From the sequence record PQ631072.1: a stretch of 64,000 nt of DNA, one strand, 5' to 3'. Below the pieces are notes generated by a model that searched no databases, was not told the DNA's origin, and saw only the letters and a program-made list of their open reading frames with translations. Source of the DNA: Escherichia phage EC.P2. Within the stretch, counting starts at the first letter, position 1. Every line of letters begins with the position of its first letter. Positions 1-63,796 of this stretch are shown here, one piece after another. Made by a program: the position numbers and the translations under genes.

Positions 1-582
1 TTCATTCAGATGCTTTGCAATAGTCATATATGGCGTTTTACAAGCTCTGTATGCAACTAAAGAATCTTTTAAAGAAAGTGCAAACTCTTTTGAGCGTTTT
101 GCTTCTTCCGTTTTCGTATAATCTGTTCTTTTGTATTTAGGGTTTGCTGCACCAAGAAGCGTTCCCTTCGCTTTTGCTACCTTAAGGCTCTTCTTAACAC
201 GATCAGATATTGCACGAGCCTCTTCTTCTGCCAGAACTGCTAAAATATTTATTATCATATTTTCAGCGGAGGGCATAGTTGCTATCCGCACATTAATCAT
301 CTCTAACAAGGTTGCAACAGAAGCTGTGTTACGTCCAAGACGGTCAACCTTAGCAACAACAAGTGTAGCACCTGTTTCTTTGCAAAGATTAACAGCTTTT
401 ACAAGCTCTCTACGTTGCTTCCAATCGCCTTTACCAGAATAAAACTCTGCAAAGCTACCTACAATAGTATAATTTTCTTGTGAATCCAAGAAGCGTTGGA
501 TATCTGCTTCCTGTGATTCTATACCATACTGGTTGCCTTGTTGTTTCTTCTTAGAAAGTCGATGATACAGTACAAACTTCAT
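1..582 (-). CDS. serine recombinase (resolvase/invertase family); C-terminal end lies beyond window start
   Basis: Minus-strand frame open from ATG at 582 (AGGAGG upstream) to position 1 with no stop; translation MKFVLYHRLSKKKQ...ATLVVAKVDRLGRN has the catalytic Ser and DRLGR motifs. Not in ORF track because no stop lies inside the window. Confidence 0.7.
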   Translation of the reverse strand, partial: MKFVLYHRLSKKKQQGNQYGIESQEADIQRFLDSQENYTIVGSFAEFYSGKGDWKQRRELVKAVNLCKETGATLVVAKVDRLGRNTASVATLLEMINVRIATMPSAENMIINILAVLAEEEARAISDRVKKSLKVAKAKGTLLGAANPKYKRTDYTKTEEAKRSKEFALSLKDSLVAYRACKTPYMTIAKHLNE

Positions 583-639
583 AATACCCTCCTGTTCTGT
601 TGCAGGAAGTATGCACTACCTTAATGTTAAAGTCAACAG

Positions 640-843
640 TTAAGTAGTGGTAATATCATCTTCTTGAATATCAGGGTCAACTTCTGCAAAGATAGCCTCT
701 ACAGGAATTTCTTCACCTGCTATTCTAGAAAGAAGCACTGAACCAATAGCTTTTGCGTGTTCTTCGGATTCCGCATAAACATTAGTTCCTGTGTCTTTTT
801 TCTTAGTTTCGTTAAAATATACCAGATAGTAATTGTATGCCAT
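640..843 (-). CDS. hypothetical protein (67 aa)
   Basis: ORF in the co-directional minus-strand gene array; no recognisable motif. Confidence 0.4.
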   Translation of the reverse strand: MAYNYYLVYFNETKKKDTGTNVYAESEEHAKAIGSVLLSRIAGEEIPVEAIFAEVDPDIQEDDITTT

Positions 844-1094
844 TATTCATCCCAATCGTTGTTGCGAGCACTTTCAAGAACCTTGACAACTTCTGCGTAC
901 TCTACAGCTAAACCAGCACACACTTCAGCTTGTTTTGCAATTGCTTGCTTAAAGAACATAGCGATTGCAACACTCTGTGTTGTGTGAATGTTATCTGCTT
1001 TAGTTGATACATGAAGATCAAAATCTTCTTCATCAAAGGTGAGTTCCATAGTAACAATAAATTTCTCGGTCATAAAAATGCTCCTCTTAAACAA
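843..1094 (-). CDS. hypothetical protein (83 aa)
   Basis: ORF abutting neighbours (start/stop overlap), no motif recognised. Confidence 0.4.
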   Translation of the reverse strand: MFKRSIFMTEKFIVTMELTFDEEDFDLHVSTKADNIHTTQSVAIAMFFKQAIAKQAEVCAGLAVEYAEVVKVLESARNNDWDE

Positions 1095-1596
1095 AATAGA
1101 AAGGTTGAGTTAAACCCAGCCTGTTTTTTGGGTCGTAGACGTACCAAGCATATGCTGTCTTGTCAGTACCACCTGCAACAAAAGATGGTCGTTCAGAAAG
1201 AACAATCAAATTTGTTGGTGGGTTCTGTTTATGGAATTCCCTTCGTTTAATAGACTCTAGGAACCCAAGACGCAACAAGTATATGCAAACGTCTGCTTCT
1301 TTTAAGCTCTTTTGCAAGAACTCAAGTGCAAGTCTGAATGGTGGATTTGTGATTATAATATCCGGCTTAGTATGCCATTCGTGGTTAAAATAATCCTTCC
1401 CTTCTTCTAACTCGCAATATTCTGATCCTTCTGGAAAATGTTGATAAATTGCAGCAGCAGCGCCTTTACACGGTTCTGCAAAAATAAAACCTTCTTCTTT
1501 AAGGTTATTAAAATCTATTACACTAAACAATGCATTTATACATTTTTGTGGAGTAGGATAGTAATCAGTTGGTGGACGATCATACTTATTTGCCAC
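1087..1596 (-). CDS. DNA N6-adenine methyltransferase-like (small phage Dam-type)
   Basis: 169 aa; FAEPCKG AdoMet-like motif followed by IITNPPF (NPPF/DPPY catalytic motif of amino-methyltransferases). Confidence 0.6.
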   Translation of the reverse strand: MANKYDRPPTDYYPTPQKCINALFSVIDFNNLKEEGFIFAEPCKGAAAAIYQHFPEGSEYCELEEGKDYFNHEWHTKPDIIITNPPFRLALEFLQKSLKEADVCIYLLRLGFLESIKRREFHKQNPPTNLIVLSERPSFVAGGTDKTAYAWYVYDPKNRLGLTQPFYFV

Positions 1597-2014
1597 TACT
1601 TAAAATCTCCTCTTTTGTGATTTCAGGGTTTTCTTCAAAAACCATAATATCTCTTAAGAACGTTAATTCTTCCATAGATACTGGTATTGTATCTTCTTCT
1701 GTTTTTCGTTTACATAAGTCGTCAAGAAAGTTTTTAACGCTTTCTGACACATCGTAAAATTTCAACAGTTGATAATCACAGGAGGAGATCCTATCTAGTT
1801 CTAACATTCTTTCTAAGATATTTTCTGTGTTGCCGTACAACACACGAACTTCTCCGAAAGGGTTGACTAAATATTGTGAAGTTCTGAACCATCCCTTTTT
1901 AGATACAGTGTAACGCTGTTCTGCTAAACTTTCAATAAAATTTTTAGCTCTTTTACAGTTTTGTTCTAAAGAGTAATAGGCTTTTTCTACAAAGATTACA
2001 GGTACTGGTAACAT
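1586..2014 (-). CDS. hypothetical protein (142 aa)
   Basis: ORF with RBS-like AGGAGG upstream of the start at 2014. Confidence 0.45.
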   Translation of the reverse strand: MLPVPVIFVEKAYYSLEQNCKRAKNFIESLAEQRYTVSKKGWFRTSQYLVNPFGEVRVLYGNTENILERMLELDRISSCDYQLLKFYDVSESVKNFLDDLCKRKTEEDTIPVSMEELTFLRDIMVFEENPEITKEEILSSGK

Positions 2015-2023
2015 ATCTCCTCC

Positions 2024-2047
2024 TAATAACCCCCGTGAGGGGGTTTA
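2024..2047 (-). terminator. putative stem-loop terminator/attenuator after HslV-like gene
   Basis: CCCCC-GTGA-GGGGG hairpin at 2030-2043 between convergently spaced genes; weak T-run on minus strand. Confidence 0.35.
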
Positions 2048-2054
2048 TGTTAGA

Positions 2055-2708
2055 TTAATTATCAGAGGACACTTTATCAAGTTTTTCAGAGACTGTCAAT
2101 ACTTTTTCTTGTGATTCTTTCATTTCTGCTAAAATACTTTCAGCTTCATCACTATCAGGATCACCAGTCAACAGCATACTAATTAGTTGCTCCTTGCTGA
2201 AGTTCAGAATATCTTCCGCTGTTAGCTCCAGTTGTTCTTCGATCTCTTCAACAAAAGTTTCACCGCCTGAAAAAGCATCTCGTAGTTTTGCAACTTCCAT
2301 CGCTTCTTCTGGGGTTGCCCCAGCGTCTAAAGCTGCTAAAGCAAAATCTGCCCCACTACCAACAGCATAGTAATCTTCAGTTAAAGGATATGCTCGCGTT
2401 GGATTATTACCCTCGTGCATATAAATTTTACCGTCTGGGTGAACAACCAATGCCACAAACTCTTCATCTTCTTTATCAGGATCTGATTGGATCACCAAAC
2501 CTGGGATTGTCTCTTGTGCTGCCTGGCACTGTAAGTTTTGTTCAAACCAAGAAAAGAAAGTCAGGATAGAAGACAGACGTCCTGCACCACCAACAAGGTA
2601 ATCCCCAATTTTACGCACTTTCTTGAAATTTAAAGTGTCTACTCGATTACCTACTGTTACTTTACCGTCAGATAGAATTTTGTTATGTGTTGCAATAATT
2701 GTTGTCAT
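2055..2708 (-). CDS. HslV/ClpQ-like N-terminal-nucleophile threonine peptidase with acidic C-terminal extension
   Basis: MTTIIA... N-terminus (Thr right after Met), GKVTVGN...KKVRK and VGGAG and YAVGSGADFA segments align to E. coli HslV TTIV...GNTVMKGNVKKVRR...GFAGG...IAIGSGGPYA; about 40 aa longer than HslV with a D/E-rich tail. Confidence 0.6.
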   Translation of the reverse strand: MTTIIATHNKILSDGKVTVGNRVDTLNFKKVRKIGDYLVGGAGRLSSILTFFSWFEQNLQCQAAQETIPGLVIQSDPDKEDEEFVALVVHPDGKIYMHEGNNPTRAYPLTEDYYAVGSGADFALAALDAGATPEEAMEVAKLRDAFSGGETFVEEIEEQLELTAEDILNFSKEQLISMLLTGDPDSDEAESILAEMKESQEKVLTVSEKLDKVSSDN

Positions 2709-3199
2709 TGTACTTCCTCCTGTAGTGTTTTAAGGACTGCTTTACCACCGCTTACATACTTACGTAGGTAATCAATAGCTCTTAGTGTTTCTTTATCCAC
2801 AAGAATTTTATTGGTTCTTGTTAGTGGATGATTTAGTAAATCACTGCAATTTCTTACTAACATAGATTTCTTGTGAAAGATACTGCTAAGAAAAAGAAGT
2901 TTAGAATCTTCTTCATCAATCAGGAGTAATTCTGAATTAGATCCGGCTACATTTATTATACACTCAAACAAGCCTTCTTGACTATCAGATAATTCCTGGT
3001 AATATTTAGTTAGCCAATCCTCTCCTTTTAACCAACTAAAAAACATCTGAACTTTTTGTAAAGTTGTCATGTTCTCTAAACGAAGAGATATTTCTTTTTC
3101 AATCTTGTCAATATAAATCTGTCTAAACTCATTCGGCTTAACTAAGCCAGCTTGATAGCATTCATCAATACCATTGCGATCAATCTCAATTAGCGTCAT
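2705..3199 (-). CDS. hypothetical protein (164 aa)
   Basis: ORF translationally coupled to HslV-like gene (ATGA overlap at 2705-2708). Confidence 0.45.
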   Translation of the reverse strand: MTLIEIDRNGIDECYQAGLVKPNEFRQIYIDKIEKEISLRLENMTTLQKVQMFFSWLKGEDWLTKYYQELSDSQEGLFECIINVAGSNSELLLIDEEDSKLLFLSSIFHKKSMLVRNCSDLLNHPLTRTNKILVDKETLRAIDYLRKYVSGGKAVLKTLQEEVQ

Positions 3200-4687: not shown

Positions 4688-4954
4688 TTACTCCGCAATC
4701 TGAGCCATGAATTCACGTAGTTCAGAAAAACCTCCTACGTGGGTTAGATGTTCACCATCTTCCACAAAAATTTGAGGGAAGGTACGTGGCAGAACACCTG
4801 TTTTCTCTAAAACCAGATTCTGAATCTGATCTAAAGAATAGTCTTCATCTAAGGTAAGGTATTTAAAATCCTGTTCACGCTGTTCTAGCAGAATTTTAGC
4901 GTTAGTGCAGAAAGGACAATTTGGTTTACCGTAGATAATAAAATTCATTTTCAC
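4688..4954 (-). CDS. glutaredoxin (likely RNR reductant)
   Basis: 88 aa, CPFC active-site motif near N-terminus (IYGKPNCPFC). Confidence 0.7.
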   Translation of the reverse strand: MKMNFIIYGKPNCPFCTNAKILLEQREQDFKYLTLDEDYSLDQIQNLVLEKTGVLPRTFPQIFVEDGEHLTHVGGFSELREFMAQIAE

Positions 4955-5781
4955 TCCTTGTTTAAAAGTATAGTTAAAGTTCTTACAATACCGCTATCAA
5001 CACTTCGCGGATTTAAAGTAGGATCTGTTTTTAAATAAGATGTTGCTGGTCTGACTGCTTTAGAATTATAGGTTGAAGCAGATACAGGATTAACTGTAAC
5101 AGATAAATCTATAACAAGAAATATCTTTCGTGCAAAATCATACCAAGAAATATAATCTGCACCTGCATAGTGTACAATTTTACTATTTACACCATCTTTT
5201 ACAAGTTTAAAAATTGTTTCTGCCAGATCAGGTGCATAAGTAGGACATGATAAATGATCACATACTACATTAAATTCTTTTTGACCACCGTTGTAGCGTT
5301 CCAACATAGTTTTCAAAAAGTTATGTCCAAACTCACTATAAACAGAAGCTGTTCTGATAATAAGTGCTGTAGGACAAACTGTTTGTACTAAAGTTTCACC
5401 TAATTGTTTACTGTAACCATAGGTGTTCAAGGGGTTTGTTTTACTATCTTCTGTGCCAGCGACATGCCCATCAAAAACATAGTCTGTTGAAATATGTACA
5501 AACTGTATCAGTAAATCATTACATGCTTTGGCAATGTTTGTTGCACCGTATGCATTAACATTTATACAGGTGTTAACATCTTCTTCAGCTTTATCTACTG
5601 CTGTGTAAGCCGCACAATTCACAACAACATCAGGCACGTGCTGTACAAGACTATTCATAACATCTTTAAAGTTGGTAATGTCTATATCACTTGCTTCAAT
5701 CAAAATAACATCTTCTGGCGCAACTTTTGCCAAAGACTGTCCTAATTGACCTTTTGAACCAAAGATTAAAAATTTTGTCAA
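4951..5781 (-). CDS. rmlD: dTDP-4-dehydrorhamnose reductase
   Basis: MTKFLIFGSKGQLGQSL...NCAAYTAVDKAEED...HISTDYVF...YGYSKQLGE parallels E. coli RfbD. Confidence 0.8.
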   Translation of the reverse strand: MTKFLIFGSKGQLGQSLAKVAPEDVILIEASDIDITNFKDVMNSLVQHVPDVVVNCAAYTAVDKAEEDVNTCINVNAYGATNIAKACNDLLIQFVHISTDYVFDGHVAGTEDSKTNPLNTYGYSKQLGETLVQTVCPTALIIRTASVYSEFGHNFLKTMLERYNGGQKEFNVVCDHLSCPTYAPDLAETIFKLVKDGVNSKIVHYAGADYISWYDFARKIFLVIDLSVTVNPVSASTYNSKAVRPATSYLKTDPTLNPRSVDSGIVRTLTILLNKE

Positions 5782-6332
5782 AATATGATCTCCTTTAGTG
5801 TTTTGGCTTGCTGATCTTTTTGTGACAAGATAGGTTTAAAATTAATATCATTAAAGATTAAATCAAAACCCCAATCTATATTGATATCTGGATCATTCCA
5901 CGCAAGACTACACTCTGAAGTCGGATCGTAATATTCTGTGCATTTATATTCAAAATCAGCAATATCGCTAATCACAACAAAACCATGAGCGAAACCAGGA
6001 GGAATCCAAAATTGTGTTTTATTCTTTTCAGATAAGAGAACACCTACCCATTCTCCAAATGTTGGACTACCAACCCTAATATCTACAGCAACATCATAAA
6101 CTTCACCACGAACACAACGTACTAACTTCCCTTGTGGGTTTTTCTTTTGAAAATGAAGCCCACGTAGAACTCCTCGAATAGAACGTGAATGGTTATCTTG
6201 GACAAAGTTTTGTTTACCTATGTATTGATCATATAAAGCCTGATTAAAACTTTCTAAGAAAAAACCACGTTCATCTCCGTAAACGTCAGGTTGAATGATC
6301 AACAAATCTTCGATTTTTGTTGCTTGAATCAT
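5778..6332 (-). CDS. rmlC: dTDP-4-dehydrorhamnose 3,5-epimerase
   Basis: 184 aa cupin; DERGFFLESFN...LRGLHFQ...FWIPPGFAHGF motifs typical of RmlC. Confidence 0.8.
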   Translation of the reverse strand: MIQATKIEDLLIIQPDVYGDERGFFLESFNQALYDQYIGKQNFVQDNHSRSIRGVLRGLHFQKKNPQGKLVRCVRGEVYDVAVDIRVGSPTFGEWVGVLLSEKNKTQFWIPPGFAHGFVVISDIADFEYKCTEYYDPTSECSLAWNDPDINIDWGFDLIFNDINFKPILSQKDQQAKTLKEIIF

Positions 6333-6344
6333 TTAACTCCCCCT

Positions 6345-7214
6345 TTATTTTAATTTAAGTAAATACTTACCGTAGTCTGTTTTACTTAAAACCTCTCCAG
6401 AACTTCTTACAGAGTCTAAAGTAATCCATTCATTTTTAAAAGCAATCTCTTCTAGGCATGCAACCTTCATCCCTTGTTGCTTTTCTATTGCATGAACAAA
6501 TTGAGATGCTTCCATAAGACTTTCATGTGTTCCTGTATCCAGCCAAGTGAAACCCCTTCCTAGTTTACAGACACGTAAAGTCTTTTCTTTCCAGTACATC
6601 TCATTTATATCTGTAATCTCTAACTCCCCTCTAGCAGAAGGTTTAACGCTCTTAGCTTTCTGTATAACAGAATTATCGTAAAAGTACAAGCCTGTGATTG
6701 CATAGTTGCTTTTTGGTGTTTTTGGTTTTTCTTCAATACTCACCACTGTACCTTCAGAATCAAATTCAACAACACCAAATCTTTCAGGATCATTTACGTG
6801 ATACCCAAAAATATTAGCTCCACCATTCTTTTCAATATGTTCTTTAGCAGAATCTAAAATGCTACCAAAACTCTGACCAAAGAATAAATTATCACCTAGC
6901 ACAAGTGCTACAGAATCTTCACCAATAAAGTTCTCACCAATAATAAAGGCTTCTGCTAAACCTTTTGGGCTGTTCTGTACTGCATACTGTAGGGAAATAC
7001 CAAAAGAAGAACCATCACCTAGAAGATTTACAAAATTAACTTGATCTTCTGGTGTTGTAATTATTAGTATTTCCCTAATTCCAGAAAGCATTAGGACAGA
7101 GAGTGGATAATAAATCATAGGCTTATCGTAAATTGGTAATAGTTGTTTACTAACCCCTTTAGTAACTGGGTAAAGTCTTGTTCCACTACCACCTGCTAAG
7201 ATAATACCTTTCAT
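6345..7214 (-). CDS. rmlA: glucose-1-phosphate thymidylyltransferase
   Basis: [39 protein letters not shown] nearly identical in pattern to E. coli RfbA N-terminus. Confidence 0.85.
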
Positions 7215-7222
7215 ACTCCTCC

Positions 7223-8212
7223 TTAAACTTTATTTTCCCACCACTCTTTGTTATCTACATACCAATCAATGGTTGAATAAAGTTTTTCTTCAAATGTGCC
7301 TTTAGCTTTCCACCCTAATTCCTTTTCAATCTTATAAGGATTCACTTCGTATCTTAAATCATGCCCAGGTCTATCTGTAACCATCTCAATGAGGCTACAA
7401 GCATCTGTTTCAGATGGATACACCGCATCCATATAATCACAAATCATATAGATTACATCAATATTAGTTCTAGGGTTTCTGCTTCCAATATTATATGTTT
7501 CTCCAGGTTTGCCTTTAGTTACTACTAGGTGTAATGCTTCTGCGTGATCGTCAACGTATAACCAATCTCTTACTTGAAGACCATTACCATAAACAGGGAT
7601 TGGTTTATGCATCAAGATATTTGTTATCGTTTTAGGTATTAGTTTTTCTGGATGATGATATGCTCCAAAATTATTTGAACAATTTGTTATAACTGTCGGA
7701 ACACCATAAGTACGATGCCACGCTCTTACCAAATGATCGCTTGCTGCCTTAGATGCAGCATATGGACTACTTGGCTTATAAGGATTCTGTTCTGTAAACG
7801 GATAATCCCCTTCTTCCAGATCACCATACACTTCATCTGTTGAAATATGATGGAACATTTTAAGATTTGATTTATCTCCCATTAAACGAACAGCTTCTAG
7901 AAGATTAAATGTCCCAACAATATTTGAATTTATAAAAACACTCGGTGATGCTATTGAATTATCTACGTGACTTTCTGCTGCAAGATGCATTATATAATCT
8001 GGATTAACATCTGCCACAATCTTAGCAGTTAACTGCGCATTTGTCAAGTCAACACGACAAAACTTTACATTAGGTGTTTCTGATAAATTTCTAGGGTCTG
8101 AAGCGTAACCCCATTTATCTATAACGTAAATATCATTCTTAGTATTTTTAGCCAGGAAACGAACTACTGCACTTCCAATAAAGCCTAAACCACCTGTTAC
8201 TAAGTATTTCAT
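7223..8212 (-). CDS. rmlB: dTDP-glucose 4,6-dehydratase
   Basis: [19 protein letters not shown]...[13 protein letters not shown]...[11 protein letters not shown] matches RfbB/RmlB SDR pattern. Confidence 0.85.
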
Positions 8213-9091: not shown

Positions 9092-9278
9092 ACTTGGCTA
9101 CACCATTAACTATAATATGACCGCAAGACATAACTCCTAGCCAATGATCACCATTCTTTTTTAAACGTTTGCCGTAAACATCACAGAAACCATTCTGTAA
9201 TTCGGAAGCCTCATAAGAGGCTCCCTTTTCGAAAACGTCTTTGAAGTCAGAAATTAATCCAACACAAAGTAGTTTCAT
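9060..9278 (-). CDS. hypothetical protein (72 aa)
   Basis: ORF immediately downstream of nrdB. Confidence 0.4.
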   Translation of the reverse strand: MKLLCVGLISDFKDVFEKGASYEASELQNGFCDVYGKRLKKNGDHWLGVMSCGHIIVNGVAKFEIIKGEKDD

Positions 9279-10363
9279 TAGAAGTCTAACTCCTCGTCAT
9301 CACTTACATCTTTATTTGCTGAATTCAGTTTGTAAGCTGTAATTTGGATCTCCTGTGCTGCTGCTTGAATTTGATCTGGATTTAACCAAACATCCATCCA
9401 AGGCAGTGGACTTTTCTTCGGTGCACGGAATTTGTGTTTCATTTTCAGTCTGCGATAGATAGGTGCAGCATTGAAGTAAACCCAAAGTTTGAACAACTCT
9501 GCGTTACCACCAACGATAACCCTTCCTTCACTAAACAAATAGTCACACCAATCTTCCTCTTGTCCAACTACCGTATCAAGAATTTCTGTCAGAACGTCGA
9601 TATTATCTTCGTATACTTTTCTCCAAACAGGATCTTTCAGCAGTGCATCAATAATAGCATAATCCATTTTAACGTGCAATAGTTCATCCAACATAATTTT
9701 TTGAATGAGTTTAGCTGCACCTACAAACAATTGCTGCTCTGCTAAGGCAAATGTTGCAGCAAAAGAGGATATGAATTGAATGCCTTCCAGACCGATAAGT
9801 GCAATCATTCCTTTCAAGATCAGTAGACGAAGGTTATCATCCTTCTCAATCAGACCTAGAGCATATTTATGTCCTGCCTCTGCCAGATCACCCATTATCT
9901 CTTCAACTATACCCATCCTCTGGAAGATTCTTTCATTCTCCATAATCTGATCGATAACTTCATTTGGATTAGGGATACACTGACGAATAATTTCAGAATA
10001 TGTCAAAGCGTGTAAAACTTCCATTTCTGATTGCTTCATCATCATTGCACATGCTTCGTTGTTGCTTAAAAATGGTGCAAACAAAGTGATAATTGATTTA
10101 GCAAGTGAATCATTTTCCCATTGGAAAGATAGGTTTTTGATCATAACATCATAGTTGCTTTTAGAACAAGCTACGAAATCTTTTCGTGTCTGATCTAAGT
10201 CTACTTCGTTTTCATCCCAATCTTGCTGTTTTTGTAGTTTGTACAGACGATGCATTTCTGGGTATGTTACATTAATAGAATCAAAAATACCTAACTGTTC
10301 TCCCAAAAATACAGGATAGAAACCTTCTTTGTAAGTGTCGTTGTATAAATTAATCGCTGCCAT
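9278..10363 (-). CDS. nrdB: ribonucleotide reductase class I beta subunit
   Basis: 361 aa; diiron-carboxylate ferritin-like pattern and size, adjacent to nrdA. Confidence 0.8.
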   Translation of the reverse strand: MAAINLYNDTYKEGFYPVFLGEQLGIFDSINVTYPEMHRLYKLQKQQDWDENEVDLDQTRKDFVACSKSNYDVMIKNLSFQWENDSLAKSIITLFAPFLSNNEACAMMMKQSEMEVLHALTYSEIIRQCIPNPNEVIDQIMENERIFQRMGIVEEIMGDLAEAGHKYALGLIEKDDNLRLLILKGMIALIGLEGIQFISSFAATFALAEQQLFVGAAKLIQKIMLDELLHVKMDYAIIDALLKDPVWRKVYEDNIDVLTEILDTVVGQEEDWCDYLFSEGRVIVGGNAELFKLWVYFNAAPIYRRLKMKHKFRAPKKSPLPWMDVWLNPDQIQAAAQEIQITAYKLNSANKDVSDDEELDF

Positions 10364-10684
10364 TTAAATCCTCCACAATATCACACATTGCTTTTATTGT
10401 ATCAATGTGTTTTCTCTCCATACCATTCTCTATGTAAGCCTTCTCTAATGCGTTCCATACACTCTTTGTGAGTAGTACAGTAACCTCTCCGTCATATCTT
10501 GCCCTGGTTAAAGCATACCAGGTAGCTTCTGGATCATTGGAAGCCCATATTTCAACACTGGAAAATTGAAAACCTGCAATATAATGGCAACACCAATCGA
10601 ATGTAAAATCTTTACTATCTACCAGTGTATAATTTCCCCAACGTCTTTGTGGTGTTGCCCCAGGTAATACAACTAATGTAGGCA
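10350..10684 (-). CDS. hypothetical protein between nrdA and nrdB (111 aa)
   Basis: Track ORF trimmed to ATG at 10684 preceded by AAGGAGG; begins MPTLVVLPGATPQRRW. Confidence 0.45.
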
Positions 10685-10694
10685 TATTCCTCCT

Positions 10695-10720
10695 TAAGAA
10701 AGGGGGACAAAGCCCCCTAG
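10695..10720 (-). terminator. putative stem-loop terminator/attenuator after nrdA
   Basis: GGGGG-ACAAAG-CCCCC hairpin at 10702-10718 followed on minus strand by TTCTT. Confidence 0.45.
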
Positions 10721-10725
10721 TTTCA

Positions 10726-12987
10726 TTACATCTTACAAGCCTCACAACCAGATTCTTCATCTTCTTGAGCGAGTGAGGTTGCCGATTTTGTTCTACTATT
10801 TAGATAGTACAAAGATTTACCACCAAGTTTTGCAAACTGAAGGATATATTGCATTTCTGATTTAATGGATAAACGACCACCTTCCATTTTAGAATAGTCA
10901 ATCCACTTATCACATGATGCACCTTGATCTAAGAATTTAGTCAATAATCCATATGCTTCAGCCATATCTTTATCTGGCGTATCCCAAGCCGATTGGTAAA
11001 TATCTTTTAGTTTATCATAGTCTGGCACAATAAACAGGACATTACCTTTTTGGCTTTGTTTATAAACTATAGTATCACGTACAGGATACACAGAGTTAGT
11101 CGTATTACTTACAAGACTACTGGACTCATTCGGAGCAATAGCTGCTAATACGCTATTTCGGATACCGCCTTGTGCAATGATATCTTGTCGTAAACCTTCC
11201 CAATCCATTTTAAGTTTAAAATTGCCAATATCGTCTACAGCTTTAGCGTAGGTGTCAATAGGCAACCATCCTTCAGGCCATTTGGTTTTATGCATCCATT
11301 CTGCATTACCCTTCTCTTTTGCCAAACGAAGAGAAGCTCTTGCTAACCAGTAATAATGCCTTTCTGCTAATTCGTGAATTAGTTTTTTGCCGTAAGGATC
11401 TGAATAAGTAACAAAATTACTTGCCAGATAATGTGCAAGGTTTGTAATACCTACACCGATAGACCTACGTGCTTTAGCAGTGATTTCGTTATGTTTAAAC
11501 GGATACTGCATTGTTTCAATAACATTATCAATAGTTAGAACTGTATAGTATGCAACATCTTCATATTCTTCTGGTGTAACACGACCAGCTACAATAGAAG
11601 ACAGGAAGCATAATGCCAATTCTTGATCTTCTGTATTCTCACCTGTGAAAAGATCAGTCATATTGTGAAATGCTTTCGTAGGTAAGAAAATTTCTTGACA
11701 CAAGTTTGACTGATAAATAACATCCTTAAACGGAGTATGCCTATTAGCATTATCCGCAAAGAACATATAAATACGTCCTGTCTCTGCTCTTTGTGTAATA
11801 ATTTCTGCCAGAAGATCTCGTGCTTTTACGAACTTTTTCTTAATTCGTTTGCGACTAACTTTTTCATATACTTCTTCAAACTCTTCCTCGCTTTTATAAA
11901 GCGCCTCATAGAGTTCTGGTGCTTCGTCATAACTAACTAGCATCCAATCTTTACCTTTTGCTGCACGGCGCAGGAAAGCATTGTTTACTACGATAGAGTA
12001 ATCAAGTTTATCTACTCGTTTTTCACTAACAGTAGTTGGGTTTTTCAAACGTACCAGATCTTCAAAATCAGGTTCTAATATTGTAAACGTTACTGTTGCA
12101 CTTCCACCACGACTTGCTTGTTTTGATGCTCCAACACTTGTTTCCATCCATTTCAGATATGGTAAAAGACCACCGTGAACGATACGGTTGTTCTTAACAC
12201 CTTGTCCTGTGGCACGGGTTTGGAGGTTAACACCAATACCTGCATTATTCAATGTATATTCATGCGCAAGATAGTTAGCAATTGCTAAAGATTCTGCTGT
12301 ATCATCTGCTCTAAACAGACAACAAGAAGCACTACCTTTAATCTTAGTACGCAAAGTTGTTAAATAAGGTGATGGTAAATTAATCTTAAGATCACTTACG
12401 TAGGTATATAGACGTTTAATGTCTTCTACTCTGCGATCTTTTGGTTGGATTTCCATTACCTTCATTGCTACACCAATGAATAAAAACTGTGGTGATTCAA
12501 AAACAACATCATTGATCGCATCTTTCACAAGATACTTATCAACCATCTGGCGCAGTACGGAATAACCATAAGTTAGGTTTTTATCGTGATTGACAATCTT
12601 ACCAATCTCAATAATTTCTTCTTCTGTATAATCCATTTTTCCCCAATAGCCTTTACTTACAGACATATTGTAGAAATCCAGGAGGGAGGGGATATTGTGA
12701 TATCCCCCATGAGCCTGTTTATAAATCATACCAAGAAGTAACCGACCTGCCATATCACTATATGCCTGATCTTTCTTATCAATACATGCTGCTATCATAG
12801 CTTTATGTAAATCACGAGTAGGCACACCATCGTAACAACGTTTAACAGCTTCAAGTTCAATTTCAGACCAATTTAATTTACCAGCAGCAAACTCTGACCA
12901 TTTACGAAGTTTTTCTGGATTAAATTCTTCTTTCTTGCCGTTTGTTTTTGTTACATAACGGATAGATTTGCTTAGATACTGAGTCAC
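10726..12987 (-). CDS. nrdA: ribonucleotide reductase class I alpha subunit
   Basis: 753 aa; N-terminal ATP-cone-like region and C-terminal tail with paired cysteines (ESGCEACKM), typical NrdA size. Confidence 0.85.
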   Translation of the reverse strand: MTQYLSKSIRYVTKTNGKKEEFNPEKLRKWSEFAAGKLNWSEIELEAVKRCYDGVPTRDLHKAMIAACIDKKDQAYSDMAGRLLLGMIYKQAHGGYHNIPSLLDFYNMSVSKGYWGKMDYTEEEIIEIGKIVNHDKNLTYGYSVLRQMVDKYLVKDAINDVVFESPQFLFIGVAMKVMEIQPKDRRVEDIKRLYTYVSDLKINLPSPYLTTLRTKIKGSASCCLFRADDTAESLAIANYLAHEYTLNNAGIGVNLQTRATGQGVKNNRIVHGGLLPYLKWMETSVGASKQASRGGSATVTFTILEPDFEDLVRLKNPTTVSEKRVDKLDYSIVVNNAFLRRAAKGKDWMLVSYDEAPELYEALYKSEEEFEEVYEKVSRKRIKKKFVKARDLLAEIITQRAETGRIYMFFADNANRHTPFKDVIYQSNLCQEIFLPTKAFHNMTDLFTGENTEDQELALCFLSSIVAGRVTPEEYEDVAYYTVLTIDNVIETMQYPFKHNEITAKARRSIGVGITNLAHYLASNFVTYSDPYGKKLIHELAERHYYWLARASLRLAKEKGNAEWMHKTKWPEGWLPIDTYAKAVDDIGNFKLKMDWEGLRQDIIAQGGIRNSVLAAIAPNESSSLVSNTTNSVYPVRDTIVYKQSQKGNVLFIVPDYDKLKDIYQSAWDTPDKDMAEAYGLLTKFLDQGASCDKWIDYSKMEGGRLSIKSEMQYILQFAKLGGKSLYYLNSRTKSATSLAQEDEESGCEACKM

Positions 12988-19487: not shown

Positions 19488-20372
19488 TTATTTTTGAATA
19501 GTTGACTTGATAAGGTCTTGCATAATACCACGGATTTCGTTAAAGCACAGAAGGACAGATGCTTCAAAAGATCCTTCTTCATCATTAAAGTATTTAGGGA
19601 ATTTAATACCACTCAACTTAAATTCTTTATCAACAATAAAGTTAACGAAGCCGTCATATTCCAGGCCAATGGCAACAACGTGCTTACCATCTTCCATAAG
19701 TTCTACTGCACGAGATTCATAAAGGGACTCTTTACTCCATACAACCACACCTTCCGAATCTTCAAGTTTAATATAATTACCCAGGGTCAGTCGTTCAGCT
19801 TCATGTTCTTCTAAGATGGTATCAAAACCTTTAATAATCGCTTCTTCGTGTACACTAAACGGCAGAACTGGGAAAGTACCCAACACCTCACGAAGAAATA
19901 CAGCAATATCTTCACTAATTTTCTTAGTACCATTAAGAACATAGGTAATACTGTTTTCAGTGTCTACAACAACATAGTTATAGAAATCATCTGCCTCTGT
20001 TTCTGGGAGCAAAGAAAACACAATATCAGCCTCAATTGCTTTTTTACTTTCTTTGTCCAAGAAAAACTCTTTGGTAGGATTTGCAGCAATAAACTCTTGT
20101 TCCATTTCCTGGAGCTTTTCATTAAGAATGCGTTTAACTTTCTTCTTGTTAACTTTCTTAACAGACTGCCCTACTTTAATAACCTCTAAACCAGAGAACA
20201 CTTTTACATAGGAACCATCATCTTCAAAACGAACAAGACCAATGGTATGTGCTTGTTGCCCCTGTGCCACAACAAAATCCAGCGGTTTGTCTGTTACTGT
20301 GTTCAGTGCTGAAATAGACAGACCATCACCAGAAATCAGGGTTACGCAAGATTTGAAATTTTTAGCAAACAT
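19488..20372 (-). CDS. rdgC: RdgC-like recombination-associated protein
   Basis: Start trimmed to ATG at 20372 (GAGGAG RBS); MFAKNFK... and DTENSITYVLNGTKKISEDIAVFLREVLGTFPVLPFS parallel E. coli RdgC MLWFKNL... / [37 protein letters not shown]. Confidence 0.6.
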   Translation of the reverse strand: MFAKNFKSCVTLISGDGLSISALNTVTDKPLDFVVAQGQQAHTIGLVRFEDDGSYVKVFSGLEVIKVGQSVKKVNKKKVKRILNEKLQEMEQEFIAANPTKEFFLDKESKKAIEADIVFSLLPETEADDFYNYVVVDTENSITYVLNGTKKISEDIAVFLREVLGTFPVLPFSVHEEAIIKGFDTILEEHEAERLTLGNYIKLEDSEGVVVWSKESLYESRAVELMEDGKHVVAIGLEYDGFVNFIVDKEFKLSGIKFPKYFNDEEGSFEASVLLCFNEIRGIMQDLIKSTIQK

Positions 20373-48652: not shown

Positions 48653-50632
48653 TTGTTAGAAATTAACACTTCCAAGATTAAGAATACAGTAACGTTTACT
48701 GTAGATAAAGACAGTTTAAAAAATACTAAAGACGCAATTAAAAACCTTAAAACTTTTACAGAATCTATTGAACCATCTTTAAATATGACTAAAATGCGTC
48801 GTCAGTTTAAAAGTATGGAAGAGTATGCTAAAAGAATAAGGCAGCAAATGTCAGGTCTTGGCGGCGGTAATCCTCCACCAATCCCACCAACCGGAGGTTC
48901 AAGTGGTGGTGGAAAAGGAGGAAGTGGTAGAGGTGGTTCTGGATCTTCTGGAGGACGTAAAACACCAGAAGAAAGAGCCGCAGAAGCCGCCGCTAAACGT
49001 GCAGCACTTGCTAATATGAAGCAAGACGATTTTAGTTTTAAAGCTATGCCTTTTACAAAAGCAGACAGCAGAATTCTAGAAAAATCTAAAAAGATTGTAG
49101 AAGAAACTGTTGAACTTTATCGTAAAGGTGTAATCACTAGCCAACAAATGAATAACACTTTGGCTAGACAGTTAGAAGAACTACGCAGATCTCATAGAGA
49201 GAAGAATGCACAACTTCTTGATGAAGAGAGAGCTAGACGTAGAATTGCCCGTCTGCAAGAAGCAGAAGATAAAAGAAGACAGCGTATCCGAGAAAGAGAA
49301 AGAAAGGATTTCGAACGTCAGCAAAGAAGAGAGAAAGAAGCAAGACAACGAGATAGACAACGTAAACTATCTGGTGTAGGTAATGCTGCTATTGCTCTTA
49401 ACCCTGCTATGTTTGGTGCTGCTCTTTTAGGTGCTGGTTTATATCAAGGTATAAGCAAAATAGCTGAAAATATTACAGCGGCGGCAGAACGTATTAATAT
49501 GGTTAGTAAAGGTGGTCAGAACGTACAGGTAAACCCTAACGCAATTTTAACAATGCGTACTTGGGGTGAAATGAACGGTGTAGACTCTGCCAGCATTATT
49601 AAAGCCATTGACAATATTAAAGACGTTCGTGAACGTTTAGGTAATACTGTACTCCACTCTGAATTTGATGAAAAATCAGGTAAATGGAAAGGTGGAGACA
49701 GTGGTATTAATGAAATCATGAACCAATTTGGTTGGTCGAAAGAAGATGTTGCTAAATTCCAGAACAGACCTCTAGACTTTGTTCAAGCACTTGTTAATGA
49801 AGGTCAAAAAAGAGGAATGAACTCCGCGCAAATTGGTCGTTTGATGGAAAACCTTGGTGATGACTTAATGCACTACCAACGTATGTTTTTGGATAACGGT
49901 AAAGAGTACATGAAAGTCTTGGATATGTTAAAAAATTCAGGAGCAACTCTTAACGATGAAAACATCAAAGCAGCACAAGATTTTGTTAAACTAAGAGCAC
50001 AAATTAGTGCAGCAGGAGAAGGTTTTACCAATAACTTACTTGTAGGGTTTATGGATGGTTTAAAATCTGCACCAGATTTTGCAGAAAATATGAAAACTTT
50101 CCAAGAAGCTGCTCGTGGTCTTGGTGAAATGTCTGGTAGTATTGTAAGTAGCCTTGCAAAAATTGCGAAATATTTCCTTGATTTTTCAAATAAGGTTGGG
50201 CCAAAAAACAATACTAAAGAAGCTGTAAGAGATTATTATAATGGTACGCAGTATGGGTACGATGCACAGGTTGGTGGTAATCCTTGGGCTTATTGGCCTA
50301 TTGGAAGAGATCAATATAAACCTGAAAATCAACCTTTAGGTGACTTTGATAGTAGTTTCTTAACTAGCGCCTTAAATCCAAGTGCTTCTAGTATTGGTTA
50401 CAATAGACCTGATTTAACAGCATCTATGCTAACACCACGCCAAGGTGTTCCAGTACCGTTAAGTCTAGAGAATACGGTTGTTATCCCAGACAACGCATTC
50501 CAGATTAATGTTATTCCAGATGGTTATGGTTTTAGTAATTATCTAGATGCGACAATGAATACCAGTTTTAGTAACTTCTCACAAGGTTTAACTCTTCAGT
50601 TAAGTAGTGGACAATCTTCTACTGGTGGTTAA
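48653..50632 (+). CDS. tail tape measure protein
   Basis: 659 aa, TTG start; Gly-rich linker GGGNPPPIPPTGGSSGGGKGGSGRGGSGSSGG, coiled-coil Arg/Glu-rich region, position after chaperone pair. Confidence 0.7.
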   Translation: MLEINTSKIKNTVTFTVDKDSLKNTKDAIKNLKTFTESIEPSLNMTKMRRQFKSMEEYAKRIRQQMSGLGGGNPPPIPPTGGSSGGGKGGSGRGGSGSSGGRKTPEERAAEAAAKRAALANMKQDDFSFKAMPFTKADSRILEKSKKIVEETVELYRKGVITSQQMNNTLARQLEELRRSHREKNAQLLDEERARRRIARLQEAEDKRRQRIRERERKDFERQQRREKEARQRDRQRKLSGVGNAAIALNPAMFGAALLGAGLYQGISKIAENITAAAERINMVSKGGQNVQVNPNAILTMRTWGEMNGVDSASIIKAIDNIKDVRERLGNTVLHSEFDEKSGKWKGGDSGINEIMNQFGWSKEDVAKFQNRPLDFVQALVNEGQKRGMNSAQIGRLMENLGDDLMHYQRMFLDNGKEYMKVLDMLKNSGATLNDENIKAAQDFVKLRAQISAAGEGFTNNLLVGFMDGLKSAPDFAENMKTFQEAARGLGEMSGSIVSSLAKIAKYFLDFSNKVGPKNNTKEAVRDYYNGTQYGYDAQVGGNPWAYWPIGRDQYKPENQPLGDFDSSFLTSALNPSASSIGYNRPDLTASMLTPRQGVPVPLSLENTVVIPDNAFQINVIPDGYGFSNYLDATMNTSFSNFSQGLTLQLSSGQSSTGG

Positions 50633-50637
50633 TGCAT

Positions 50638-50668
50638 AAAGCCTCGCTTCGGCGGGGCTTTTTATTTG
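50638..50668 (+). terminator. rho-independent terminator after tape measure
   Basis: GCCTCGC-TTCG-GCGGGGC hairpin followed by TTTTTATTT. Confidence 0.7.
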
Positions 50669-50670
50669 TC

Positions 50671-50700
50671 TTGACAAAGAGTTGTTTTTCGTGATAAAAT
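50671..50700 (+). promoter_or_regulatory. sigma70-type promoter (TTGACA-18-TAAAAT)
   Basis: TTGACA 50671-50676, TAAAAT 50695-50700. Confidence 0.55.
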
Positions 50701-50747
50701 GAGTGATAAGGGAGAATGTTTCTTATCACATTAAGAGGTAAAATTAT

Positions 50748-51458
50748 ATGGCAGCAAACACTCCAGAACAACACGTTCAAGCGGTTTATAAAGCGGAACA
50801 AGATATAAACTCTACAAAAAACACAAATAACTCTGCCTCTACTGTGAAAGGGGAGAATGGTTTTTGTATTTTAGCAAGTGTTTACAATAGTGCAAGTGAT
50901 CAATATATTCAAAACTACCAGGCTATAGTTTTTGATGCTGTTCCAAATATCGGTGTAAAACGTCAAGCAGATGTAACTAGTTATCCTGTAGAAAATGGTG
51001 CTAATGTATCGGATCACGTTCAAGTTAAGAATAATACTTTCTCTTTATCAGGAATGATTACAGAGACACCTGTAAGATTAATGCGAGATATGCTATATAG
51101 TGCTGGTGTTAACGGTACTCGTATCAGTCAAGCAATTACTTACTTAGATAAAATATTTGATGAAAGACAGCCTATCATTTTAATAACAGAACATAAGGTG
51201 TATGAGAATGTTATTTTGAAAGGCATATCATATGAATATCAAACAGAATATGCAATGCAATTTGACTTGGAATTTGAACAAGTAAGATTAGTTTCCTACG
51301 GGGAAACAAATGCTATTGCACTTAAGACAAAACCAAATAAGAATACAGGTGTTAAAAACAAGAAAGGTACTAGTCCAGATGCTGATTTGGATGCAAGAAC
51401 AGGGAAAGCAACTGGTACAGAACATCTTAGTGATCACAGTGCAGATGGTAAAAAATAA
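50748..51458 (+). CDS. tail/baseplate protein (236 aa)
   Basis: ORF with AAGAGG RBS downstream of tape measure. Confidence 0.45.
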   Translation: MAANTPEQHVQAVYKAEQDINSTKNTNNSASTVKGENGFCILASVYNSASDQYIQNYQAIVFDAVPNIGVKRQADVTSYPVENGANVSDHVQVKNNTFSLSGMITETPVRLMRDMLYSAGVNGTRISQAITYLDKIFDERQPIILITEHKVYENVILKGISYEYQTEYAMQFDLEFEQVRLVSYGETNAIALKTKPNKNTGVKNKKGTSPDADLDARTGKATGTEHLSDHSADGKK

Positions 51459-51469
51459 GGAGAAAATTT

Positions 51470-51889
51470 TTGGCTATTTCATCTTATTCAAAGATCAGTA
51501 GAAGCACATCTAATAGTGGCTACAATGCAGTATTTATTGATCGAAATTTAGGTTATTATTCTTGGTACTTACCTACAGAACAGTACCCAGACCAAACATA
51601 TACGGTAACTCTCGATGGAGTAGATTATGATATACGTTTGAGATGGAATACAAGAGATCAAGCGTGGCAAATGCAATTAGGATTATCAGGAGACAACCCT
51701 AGTGTAACTTTTAAAGTAACCAATGGTTTAGATCTTCTAGAACCATATAAGTATATAGAATCTGTGCCGGATGGTCAACTCTATTTGGTAGATACTGTTA
51801 AAATAAACGGTAGACCTAATTACTATGACACAGGTGTAGATAAAAGATTTGCTTTGGTTTATATCGACGCTCTTCCATATCAAGCATGA
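51470..51889 (+). CDS. tail/baseplate protein (139 aa)
   Basis: TTG start after AAGGAG. Confidence 0.45.
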   Translation: MAISSYSKISRSTSNSGYNAVFIDRNLGYYSWYLPTEQYPDQTYTVTLDGVDYDIRLRWNTRDQAWQMQLGLSGDNPSVTFKVTNGLDLLEPYKYIESVPDGQLYLVDTVKINGRPNYYDTGVDKRFALVYIDALPYQA

Positions 51890-51905
51890 TAAAAGGAGTT
51901 TTTAA

Positions 51906-52916
51906 ATGGCAGAAGAAAGAAATTATACAAAAGCTCCTGCACCCAATCTAAACAGAGCATACAAACTGTTAATAGGTACAGCTACTAATACTAAAGAAAA
52001 AAGGACAAAAAATTCCTCTTTCAAATCTACAGTAGACTTAGATACTAAACTAGGGGATGCTAAAAAATCAACCCCTAATTTGTATGTTATTACGGAGCAC
52101 CAAATATCTTTCACAATAAGAAAAGATAATAATAAAGATCCTAATCAAGCCGAGATAACTATTTATAACCTAAGTGATGATACTGTTAACTATATTAACA
52201 AGGGTATTCGTAACAACTTGGCTGTTGCTTTAGCGGTAGGTTATGAAGGTCAAGAGTTAATTATGATCTTTAAGGGAACGGTGCAATGGGTGAGTGATAC
52301 CTTTAACAATACAGACAGACGTACAGTGTTACATTGTCTGGATGGTGGTATTAACATCTCCGAAGCAAGGACAAGCAGAAGTTATCCGAAAGGTACAAAA
52401 GTAAGTAAGGTTGTTAAAGATTTAGTTAAAGATTTAGGTACTACAGAAGGTAATATTCACGTAGATACAGAGAAAACTTTATCATCTGCAACAGCTATGT
52501 GTGGGAACACATCACATTACTTAGAAAGTATCTGTAAAGGTATTGATCATAATGTGTCAATACAAGACGGATCTGTTTACGTGACACCAAGATCACAAAT
52601 GTCTAGTGCAAGATGTGCATATATTAGCGCAGAAACAGGTTTAATTGGTAGTCCAGAACCTTTCCACAATGATATTAAACCGACACAAAAAGTAACCAAA
52701 TCTTCTAAGAAAGCTAAAAAGCCTACAGATGGTGTTAAGTTCAGATGTGAAATGAACGGTGCTATCTTACCAGAAAAAACTGTTTGGCTCAAGAGCCATA
52801 ACTACGATGGTGGTTTTAAGGTAGTATCTGTTGTTCATACAGGAGATAGGGAAGGTAAAGACTGGACAACTGAAGTAGAGTCTGTATCTGTATCTGCAAT
52901 TATTAAGAAGGGCTAG
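51906..52916 (+). CDS. putative baseplate hub protein (336 aa)
   Basis: ORF with AAAGGAG RBS; position between tape measure and spike. Confidence 0.4.
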   Translation: MAEERNYTKAPAPNLNRAYKLLIGTATNTKEKRTKNSSFKSTVDLDTKLGDAKKSTPNLYVITEHQISFTIRKDNNKDPNQAEITIYNLSDDTVNYINKGIRNNLAVALAVGYEGQELIMIFKGTVQWVSDTFNNTDRRTVLHCLDGGINISEARTSRSYPKGTKVSKVVKDLVKDLGTTEGNIHVDTEKTLSSATAMCGNTSHYLESICKGIDHNVSIQDGSVYVTPRSQMSSARCAYISAETGLIGSPEPFHNDIKPTQKVTKSSKKAKKPTDGVKFRCEMNGAILPEKTVWLKSHNYDGGFKVVSVVHTGDREGKDWTTEVESVSVSAIIKKG

Positions 52917-52918
52917 AA

Positions 52919-53656
52919 ATGGATGCTTTAAATTTTGTAACAGCAATCCGTGGATTAATCAACGAGCAAGTTGCGGAAGTACATACATCTTTACCTGTAA
53001 GGGTAATTGGTGTAGATTATGGATCTAAGACAGTAACTTTAGAATCTATCGTAAAAAATACCAGATCTACTGAAGATGAAATAGATTACCCAACATTCCA
53101 CGATGTTCCTTTTATGGTAAATGGTGGTGGTACAGGTAGAATTTCATTTCCAATCAAAGCAGGAGATATTGGTGTTGTTGTCTTTTCAGAAAGAGATCCG
53201 TCGAATGCCTTCCAGACAGACGGAGATACAGCCAGTAGCGGAACATTAATTCAACCTTGTGGTTTGTATCCAGCCTGTTTTATTCCTAAGATAGCAACAG
53301 CTACAGATTCTTCTGAAGAAGTAGATTCTGAAAAAGTTGTTATCTCAAATAATAAGCAAACTTACGCTTCGTTTGATCCTAACGGTAACATATCTGTGTA
53401 CAACACACAAGGTATGAAAATAGATATGACACCAAACAGTATCGTTCTTACTGATGCAGGAGGAGGAAAACTTACACTGCAAGGTGGGACTATGACATAT
53501 AAAGGTGGTACTGTAAATTTAAACGGTTTAACAATCACACCTGACGGTCGTATGAAAGATAGTGGTGGCATTGGTTTACACACACATACACACCCTGTAC
53601 GCGGTGTTGAAACTGGTGGTAGCACTGTTACTTCCGACAAACCAAATGGAGGTTAA
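52919..53656 (+). CDS. baseplate central spike protein (gpV/gp5-like)
   Basis: 245 aa; Gly-rich beta-type C-terminal region ending in HTHTHP, resembling the metal-binding His apex of cell-puncturing spikes. Confidence 0.5.
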   Translation: MDALNFVTAIRGLINEQVAEVHTSLPVRVIGVDYGSKTVTLESIVKNTRSTEDEIDYPTFHDVPFMVNGGGTGRISFPIKAGDIGVVVFSERDPSNAFQTDGDTASSGTLIQPCGLYPACFIPKIATATDSSEEVDSEKVVISNNKQTYASFDPNGNISVYNTQGMKIDMTPNSIVLTDAGGGKLTLQGGTMTYKGGTVNLNGLTITPDGRMKDSGGIGLHTHTHPVRGVETGGSTVTSDKPNGG

Positions 53657-53659
53657 CAG

Positions 53660-54295: not shown

Positions 54296-54761
54296 TTTAA
54301 CTACAATCAAGGTGTCTGATCTACCTGTAACAACATCTGTTTCAGACACAGATTATTTTGTAACAGATCAATCAGGCATCACTAAGAAAACATCATTACG
54401 TGTTCTTCTTGCGGGTGCTGGTGTTACACGAAATCGTCTTTCTGCAAGGGGTACTGTCACAAATACCCTAGCTTTAGATATTAGCACGGCAGAGTATTTC
54501 TCTGCCACTTTATCTAGTCCAACTTGCAGTATTTCATTTAGTAATGTTCCAGTTACAACTAACATTGTTCAAAACTTTACCCTATCTCTACGTCAAGGTA
54601 GTGGAGCAAATAAAGTAACGTGGCCTCAATCTGTTAAATGGAGTTTTGGTCGCGCTCCTGTTTTGAGTTATAAACAGGGAGCTACAGATATTTTTGAATT
54701 TGTTAGTTATGATAATGGAGCTACCTGGATAGGTAGTTTAGTGATGGCAGGAGTGATTTAA
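54288..54761 (+). CDS. baseplate/tail protein (157 aa)
   Basis: ORF overlapping neighbours by a few nt. Confidence 0.4.
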   Translation: MADLTTIKVSDLPVTTSVSDTDYFVTDQSGITKKTSLRVLLAGAGVTRNRLSARGTVTNTLALDISTAEYFSATLSSPTCSISFSNVPVTTNIVQNFTLSLRQGSGANKVTWPQSVKWSFGRAPVLSYKQGATDIFEFVSYDNGATWIGSLVMAGVI

Positions 54762-57637: not shown

Positions 57638-57645
57638 GGAAAATA

Positions 57646-59805: not shown

Positions 59806-59813
59806 GAGTAAAA

Positions 59814-61979: not shown

Positions 61980-61985
61980 TAACAT

Positions 61986-63794: not shown

Positions 63795-63796
63795 AA

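Follow-up and report, generated by a model that had tools for sequence, protein, structure and literature searches.

A small serine recombinase with a predicted promoter of its own in phi92-like bacteriophages, and its possible functions

Serine recombinases with a resolvase-type catalytic domain are known from several systems. The DNA invertases Gin, Cin, Hin and Pin (of Mu, P1, Salmonella and e14, respectively) are all small proteins, about 190-220 aa in length, and have an HTH_7 domain. They also use a recombinational enhancer bound by Fis, whose sites are too degenerate to be recognized by sequence. In Mu and P1, inversion matters mainly in lysogenic growth. LSRs such as the Bxb1, phiC31 and A118 integrases and CcrB are about 400-700 aa long and have a full recombinase domain, a zinc ribbon, and a coiled coil. 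The zinc ribbon and the coiled coil select the att sites and control the direction of the reaction. An unnamed 'recombinase family protein' group (about 215-230 aa) is found on small plasmids and in hundreds of viral contigs. In the resolvase of Tn3, six residues (Y6, R8, S10, D36, R68, and R71) are crucial (Olorunniji and Stark, PMC2794168).

The gene described here lies at the beginning of a stretch of 64,000 nucleotides from Escherichia phage EC.P2 (PQ631072.1); this whole stretch is called the window. Its product shares the catalytic fold and residues of Gin, Cin, Hin and Pin, and it is only about 29% identical to Mu Gin over 143 columns. Unlike these invertases, it has an apparently PF07508-like C-terminus and no adjacent invertible segment bounded by inverted repeats, and its phage is virulent. 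The catalytic hexad is common to this enzyme and the Tn3/gamma-delta and Sin/beta resolvases (PMC2794168), while the upstream res, the transposase and the plasmid backbone of those systems are absent and the DNA-binding domain is a different one. Among LSRs, Bxb1 is the best structural match, but the protein has only 220 aa and, it appears, just the first helical part of the recombinase domain. The unnamed family is similar over the full length (about 31-39% identity) and has the same two-domain layout. Its small-plasmid members are carried on plasmids, whereas the gene in the window belongs to a linear, terminally repeated lytic phage genome. To our knowledge, there is neither an attP nor a prophage for this recombinase.

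Identity and distribution of the gene

The gene runs off the start of the window (Table 1). In relatives the full gene encodes 220 aa, so that no more than 26 codons at its end and the stop codon are missing from the window. An earlier note, made from the nucleotide letters, had recognized a minus-strand serine recombinase at the window edge, and this holds. The ORF at 1-582 contains resolvase catalytic motifs, and it matches Pfam PF00239 (Resolvase N-terminal domain) over residues 4-141 (78.7 bits, the curated threshold being 23.3; E=6.3e-22), a score that we judge far above chance. It is matched by PHROG 125 ('DNA invertase') at 1e-31 and by PHROG 95 ('integrase') at 1.5e-25. In NCBIfam its best matches all score far below the equivalog cutoffs (CcrB 35.8 vs 900, Mpi master invertase 33.5 vs 272, and YneB resolvase-like 29.8 vs 175); the top match, also below its cutoff, is with the N-terminal 225 positions of CcrB.

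Table 1. Locations of the recombinase gene, its parts, and other features mentioned in the text
Feature	Location	Strand	Remarks
Recombinase ORF, first 194 of 220 codons	window 1..582	minus	ATG at 582..580; runs off window start
Ribosome-binding site (RBS) GGAGGG	window 587..592	minus	4 nt upstream of ATG; read from sequence; phi92 RefSeq RBS at same place
Predicted sigma-70-type promoter	window 608..636	minus	TTGACT (636..631), 17-nt spacer, CATACT (613..608); consensus scan
gp054 homolog (small gene)	window 640..843	minus	left boundary of recombinase cassette; ORF list, phi92 and W22 annotation
Recombinase domains (residues)	catalytic ~1-100; helix E 108-138; linker 139-161 (flexible); C-terminal 4-helix DNA-binding domain 162-216		AlphaFold2 model
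Full-length orthologues, 663 nt / 220 aa	phi92 19493-20155; W22 L001:7920-8582	minus	
Recombinase gene of Phapecoctavirus 536P1	OZ035728.1 103510-104172	plus	rightward early block
103-aa ORF antisense to recombinase gene	window 131-442	plus	TTG start
dTDP-rhamnose genes	window 4951-8212	minus	
Variable small gene between nrdB (9278-10363) and nrdA (10726-12987)	window 10350-10760	minus	
tRNA genes	window 31704-34592	plus	16 genes
Unalignable part of tail-fibre/tailspike gene	window 59963-62062 (in ORF 59814-61979)	plus	~2 kb; 721-aa product
1.2-kb inverted segment	OZ035773.1 75091-76247 (L012:25091-26247); phi92 ~131.1-132.3 kb (L021:1388-2544); OM401812.1 ~86.1-86.9 kb		
Promoter-stem-loop cassettes	OZ035773.1 82.0-88.7 kb; OZ035728.1 83.6-91.0 kb		5-12 copies per genome
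AATGA(G/T)AATCATT clusters	phi92 terminal repeat L002:~66-95 and ~255-295; OZ035773.1 80974-81060 and 90945-91004		
Three direct repeats of ~64 nt	OZ035773.1 80748-80953 (L012:30748-30953)		~67-75-nt spacing

The gene is phi92 gp053 (YP_009012384.1) in another isolate, clipped by the window edge. Across the 194 codons that the window covers, the two proteins are 100% identical, and the strand, the operon context and the neighbours (gp054 upstream; gp052 and gp051 downstream) are shared. The RefSeq product of gp053 is 'DNA invertase', and 'putative recombinase, resolvase family protein / DNA invertase' is also used; the name 'DNA invertase' is based on homology only. A literature search found no experimental work on this gene (the phi92 genome paper, Schwarzer 2012, was outside its scope). 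The gene is already annotated in dozens of public genomes and is nothing categorically new. What is added here is the proposed architecture of a mini-LSR, a conserved putative promoter belonging to the gene alone, its non-syntenic location, and the negative outcome of the tests for inversion. The ORF antisense to the recombinase gene (Table 1) is most likely a shadow ORF.

Positions 1-3000 of the window are 95-99.5% identical to 55 records of Justusliebigvirus (phi92-like, Stephanstirmvirinae), a genus of virulent myoviruses of ~148 kb to which the window belongs. The phi92 genome is linear with 343-bp direct terminal repeats. All 55 records have one copy of the recombinase gene, and the proteins are 99-100% identical. 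The gene is also found in Phapecoctavirus (~57% protein identity), in Klebsiella phage phi1_175008 (78%), in Citrobacter phage Tr1 (50%), and in large Shewanella, Vibrio and Cellulophaga phages (28-50%). Note that four records filed as 'Campylobacter phage' with C. jejuni as the host (MG065639.1, MG065645.1, MG065656.1, and MG065689.1) are 98% identical to these E. coli phages, and that phage ZYD (PQ110661.1) is filed under Vequintavirus though it is a Justusliebigvirus. These are probably labelling errors.

Catalytic residues and domain architecture

The catalytic motifs in the translation are YHRLS (Y6, R8, and S10) and VDRLGRN (D80, R81, and R84). The counterparts of the Tn3 hexad are Y6, R8, S10, E46, R81, and R84, and all six are present. 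E46 is a D-to-E change relative to D36 of Tn3; Sin likewise has E. When 27 homologs with identities as low as 31% are aligned, each of the six positions is either invariant or conserved in 90% or more of them. The window and phi92 have 11 synonymous and 0 non-synonymous codon differences, and the window and Klebsiella phage phi1_175008 have ~90 synonymous and 49 non-synonymous ones. By these comparisons, the recombinase appears to be kept by purifying selection, its catalytic residues included, and it looks intact and catalytically competent.

In the AlphaFold2 model (pLDDT 88), a catalytic alpha/beta core is followed by the long helix E. When this model is compared with PDB by Foldseek, the best match is Bxb1 (257 aligned columns), followed by Sin (E ~1e-6) and gamma-delta resolvase (5e-6), with a probability of 1.0. 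PF07508 ('Recombinase') is matched by 19 of the 27 family members, at best with 3.3e-7, the window's own protein giving no match at E<=1. HTH_7 is matched by none of the 27 at E<=1. The C-terminal motif IA..LN..G..T..G..W...V.R is LSR-like, and neither a zinc ribbon nor a coiled coil is present in the 220-aa protein, as judged from its length and the AlphaFold2 model. Together these comparisons suggest that the C-terminal domain is the short first helical part of the LSR 'Recombinase' domain, not the HTH of resolvases and invertases. We regard the recombinase as a 'mini-LSR', neither a Gin/Hin-type invertase nor a Tn3-type resolvase. The expectation of a small enzyme rather than a large serine integrase agrees with the length of 220 aa.

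Predicted promoter and position of the recombinase cassette

The predicted promoter and the RBS are contained in the 57-bp spacer upstream of the recombinase gene. A single TTGACT-N17-CATACT match is at chance level by itself. TTGAC(A/T)-N17-'-10' is, however, found at the same position upstream of the orthologue in all eight of eight divergent lineages, in DNA that is otherwise unalignable. From this conservation, we infer that the element is the gene's own host-type promoter, presumably an early one. Because the spacer is taken up by the predicted promoter, there is no room for a Tn3-type res, and a res site with crossover and accessory subsites (~114-120 bp) was not found upstream of the gene. 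A dyad around the promoter, CTGTTG...CAACAG, was considered as an operator and rejected, as the relatives in Klebsiella phage and Phapecoctavirus do not share it.

The recombinase gene and the genes beside it point the same way, as parts of an extended leftward block with early and DNA-metabolism functions, which includes Sir2, two methyltransferases, DprA-like, phosphatase, HslV-like, PhoH, lysozyme, rmlABCD, and RNR. The rml genes form a complete dTDP-rhamnose pathway (rmlD, rmlC, rmlA, and rmlB homologs) in a lytic phage, and they adjoin glutaredoxin/thioredoxin and lysozyme genes. Between nrdB and nrdA, there is a small gene that varies among isolates. In phi92 it encodes a 218-aa HNH endonuclease (gp074), and in the window and W22 the place is taken by an unrelated ORF of 111-136 aa. 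This gap looks like a homing-endonuclease presence/absence site.

In Phapecoctavirus, the recombinase gene is found elsewhere. In 536P1, it belongs to a rightward early block (Table 1), and the position that it occupies in Justusliebigvirus is an 'empty site' consisting of gp054, a terminator hairpin, gp052, and gp051, with no recombinase. The empty site shows that the inserted unit is the promoter and the ORF only. This unit is a promoter-plus-ORF cassette of ~730 bp, which has been relocated over evolutionary time. As its locus differs between the sister genera, the cassette does not depend on a cis site next to it. Metagenomic and Vibrio relatives have it amid other early genes (e.g., NAMPT/rIIB, PhoH/rml, and ClpP/YopX). 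No transposase or transposon context was found, the neighbours being phage early genes in all contexts looked at, and the ends of the cassette showed neither terminal repeats nor target duplications. A search of public assemblies for alternative junctions beside the recombinase gene found only the standard context.

Candidate sites and possible functions

A whole-genome repeat scan found no repeated dyad-symmetric site pair of the res-like or crossover type. Everything that it detected was a terminator, a promoter-stem-loop cassette, a paralogous gene, or a Fur-box-like palindrome. Several candidates for a site were rejected. The direct repeat D20 (623-650 and 50583-50610) is judged to be due to chance, because the 14-mer common to its two copies is coding sequence for the gp054 C-terminus and the Klebsiella relative lacks it. 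The GC-rich hairpins and 42-nt repeats in the early region belong to the promoter-stem-loop cassettes. The AATGA(G/T)AATCATT palindromes in the terminal repeat are Fur-box-like, and they are symmetric about a base pair (7-1-7), an arrangement at odds with cleavage at a 2-bp stagger.

The reading we favour, with a probability of roughly 0.4, is an early-expressed recombinase that performs a resolution-type reaction on replicating phage DNA. The closest non-phage relatives, full-length at ~35% identity, are found on non-mobilizable plasmids of 6-7 kb (two examined). Phaeobacter piscinae pP18_i (7.3 kb) has the homolog together with Rep and ParA genes, and Synechococcus elongatus pIITB3_2 (6.4 kb) also encodes a full-length homolog. 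From their context, these plasmid relatives are expected to have a role in multimer resolution. The plasmid relatives, the lack of an inversion substrate, the predicted early promoter and the core-gene status favour resolution over inversion, on a weak balance. Confidence in resolution is limited by the failure to find a site and by the lack of a known resolvase need in such a phage: we know of no need for multimer resolution in a linear phage with direct terminal repeats. The spacer too short for a Tn3-type res and the different loci of the cassette in the sister genera likewise count against resolution. A replication resolvase was one of the two options in the earlier note; it is possible and, by analogy with the plasmid relatives, would be weakly favoured.

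For the resolution-type reaction, the recombinase would be made early in infection from its own promoter. Its dimers would bind a dyad site, and two such sites would synapse in a tetramer. Ser10 would then attack the DNA, giving 2-bp staggered double-strand breaks, half of the tetramer would rotate by 180 degrees, and the ends would be rejoined. Attack by this serine, double-strand breakage and subunit rotation are the established chemistry of serine recombinases. The outcome would be deletion or fusion on replicating phage DNA, as the plasmid relatives presumably bring about on multimers.

It is possible, though unlikely, that the cassette is a selfish or moron-like element without a role on phage DNA, or that the recombinase fold is kept mainly as a DNA-binding regulator. 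The compact promoter-plus-ORF unit sits in intergenic DNA at different loci in the two genera and leaves a clean empty site in 536P1, a layout typical of free-standing homing-endonuclease genes, and a target was not found in the phage genome. On the other hand, the gene exists in every isolate of two genera, and the apparent purifying selection is strong and extends to the catalytic residues, which a pure DNA binder would not need. The cassette ends without repeats or duplications also count against a selfish element.

A broader proposal is that serine site-specific recombination is used in lytic growth by Stephanstirmvirinae and related Vibrio/Shewanella phages, which would retain an intact early mini-LSR under purifying selection although no cognate site pair was detected in the phage genome. 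We consider this improbable, and we know of no described example of such use. If it is true, one candidate role would be joining of the 343-bp terminal repeats to circularise the incoming genome; the P1 genome is circularised by Cre-lox. Another candidate role would be rearrangement of host or competitor DNA.

Slightly less probable still is an action of the recombinase on host or resident DNA (sites in the chromosome, a prophage, or a plasmid), either for takeover or for counter-defence. The predicted early host-type promoter and the lack of a cognate repeated site in the phage genome would be consistent with this. The host serine invertases PinQ and PinR are reported to alter phage adsorption (PMC12529663; bioRxiv 10.1101/2025.03.28.646004), which means that recombinase-controlled host switches exist. 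However, the DNA-binding domain is unlike that of the Pin-type invertases, and the relatives in phages of very different hosts (Vibrio, Shewanella, and Cellulophaga) argue against one conserved target.

There is very little probability that the enzyme is a Gin/Cin/Hin-type DNA invertase flipping a tail-fibre or host-range segment between inverted repeats, the other option in the earlier note. The label 'DNA invertase' in RefSeq and PHROG, the presence of several tailspikes in phi92-like phages, and a 1.2-kb segment (phi92 gp214-gp217) that is inverted in about 24 of 55 isolates would speak for it. However, the identity to P1 Cin is only 32%, covering residues 44-157 (E=1e-4), the C-terminal domain is not HTH_7, and the sole inverted segment carries small early genes rather than tail genes. 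No inverted repeats above chance were found in the window, in the 8 kb upstream of it (where gix/hix-like sites had been suggested as a check), in 19 kb around the gene in W22, or in the whole genome of one isolate. The scans returned only chance-level pairs, terminators, promoter-stem-loops, and paralogs. A 20-nt inverted repeat (90%) between the 5' end of the recombinase gene (540-559) and rmlC (6249-6268) is judged to be due to chance, since both arms are coding and a flip between them would disrupt the two genes. For 80 viral-contig homologs, a lax threshold gave 21 loci with inverted repeats beside the gene, compared with 10 in shuffles; inverted repeats adjoining the gene are not a general feature of these homologs.

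The arrangement of the genomes does not indicate inversion, either. Around the recombinase gene (-8 to +11 kb), all of the ~55 isolates are collinear. They are also collinear in the region of the baseplate and tail-fibre genes (window 50000-64000); the sole variation there is replacement of a tailspike cassette. At that place, part of the tail-fibre/tailspike gene cannot be aligned and its flanks are 98% identical (Table 1). Host-range variation there is by cassette replacement, not by inversion. When whole genomes of two Justusliebigvirus isolates and one Phapecoctavirus are compared, only two pieces are reversed: the relocated recombinase gene and the 1.2-kb segment.

The 1.2-kb segment is 37 kb from the recombinase gene and outside the window. 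Within it are phi92 gp214-gp216 and a divergent promoter region, together with the first ~35-65 codons of gp217. The phi92 order is found in ~31 records and the opposite (B) order in ~24; 536P1 also has the opposite order. In one order, a small N-terminal domain (MQNIxLTxIEAKEAM...) is fused to the C-terminal part of gp217, and in the other this domain is either free-standing or joined to the adjacent gene. The junctions are unclean, with indels and extra genes, and the alleles of the two orders differ by 10-29%. There are no inverted repeats above the control level at the segment boundaries (scores of 19, 20 and 24, against 18.6, 19.4 and 20.3 for shuffled sequences with an sd of about 2). 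In view of the junction indels, the control-level boundary repeats, the diverged alleles and the B order common to the genera, the segment was rejected as a target of the recombinase. Our conclusion is that homologous exchange has spread an old structural variant here and that the segment is no active switch. We found no support for an inversion switch acting on tail fibres or host range.

Least probable is a role as an integrase for insertion of the phage into the host chromosome. Phage integrases are found among the serine recombinases, PHROG 95 matches, and part of the LSR 'Recombinase' domain is present in members of the family. However, the protein is 220 aa long and has neither zinc ribbon nor coiled coil, and no repressor or integrase appears in the phi92 and W22 annotation examined, in agreement with the earlier note. 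Positions 1-3000 of the window have 0 matches in 5,426 complete E. coli genomes, that is, no prophage or carrier copy. In papers on relatives, no lysogeny genes are reported (PMC5374246). A role as a lysogeny enzyme, already doubted in the earlier note, is very unlikely in this virulent phage family.

Screening for phage therapy treats recombinase genes as markers of lysogeny, and the candidates for such therapy include phi92-like and phAPEC8-like phages. In the literature on them, the gene is overlooked, with the statement 'no recombinases' (PMC5374246, PMC10269720), and one paper guesses that it 'keeps concatemers as single molecules' (PMC10282059). With a 220-aa non-integrase, no prophage copies and no inversion switch, the safety question is settled and the idea of a host-range switch is removed. 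The role of a conserved recombinase in the lytic cycle is modestly interesting and directly testable.

Several repeated elements of these genomes were seen in the scans. The promoter-stem-loop cassettes exist in a hypervariable early region left of the terminal repeat, and none is within the window. Each has, in order, TTGACA-N17-TAAGAT, GTATCAC(A/G)TAGGGCGG, a GC-rich hairpin, an RBS, and ATG. They resemble T4-type promoter-early-stem-loop elements, which are thought to drive gene shuffling. AATGA(G/T)AATCATT sites are clustered at three places: within the 343-bp terminal repeat, ~0.9 kb to its left, and, ~11 kb to its left, in a non-coding region of ~700 bp. There are 13-15 such sites compared with ~4 expected from shuffles, and they are conserved in both genera. 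One copy, GTAAATGATAATCATTATC, agrees with the Fur-box consensus of E. coli in 17 of 19 positions. These clusters may be for iron/Fur-responsive early control or may be binding sites of a phage protein. Next to the Fur-box-like cluster in the long non-coding region, there are three iteron-like direct repeats of ~64 nt (TTATTTAAAGTTTTT...TTTGAAAATGAAAAGTTCAA), which might mark an origin or a regulatory region. The tRNA genes in the window include three tRNA-Met, two tRNA-Leu, and two tRNA-Ser genes.
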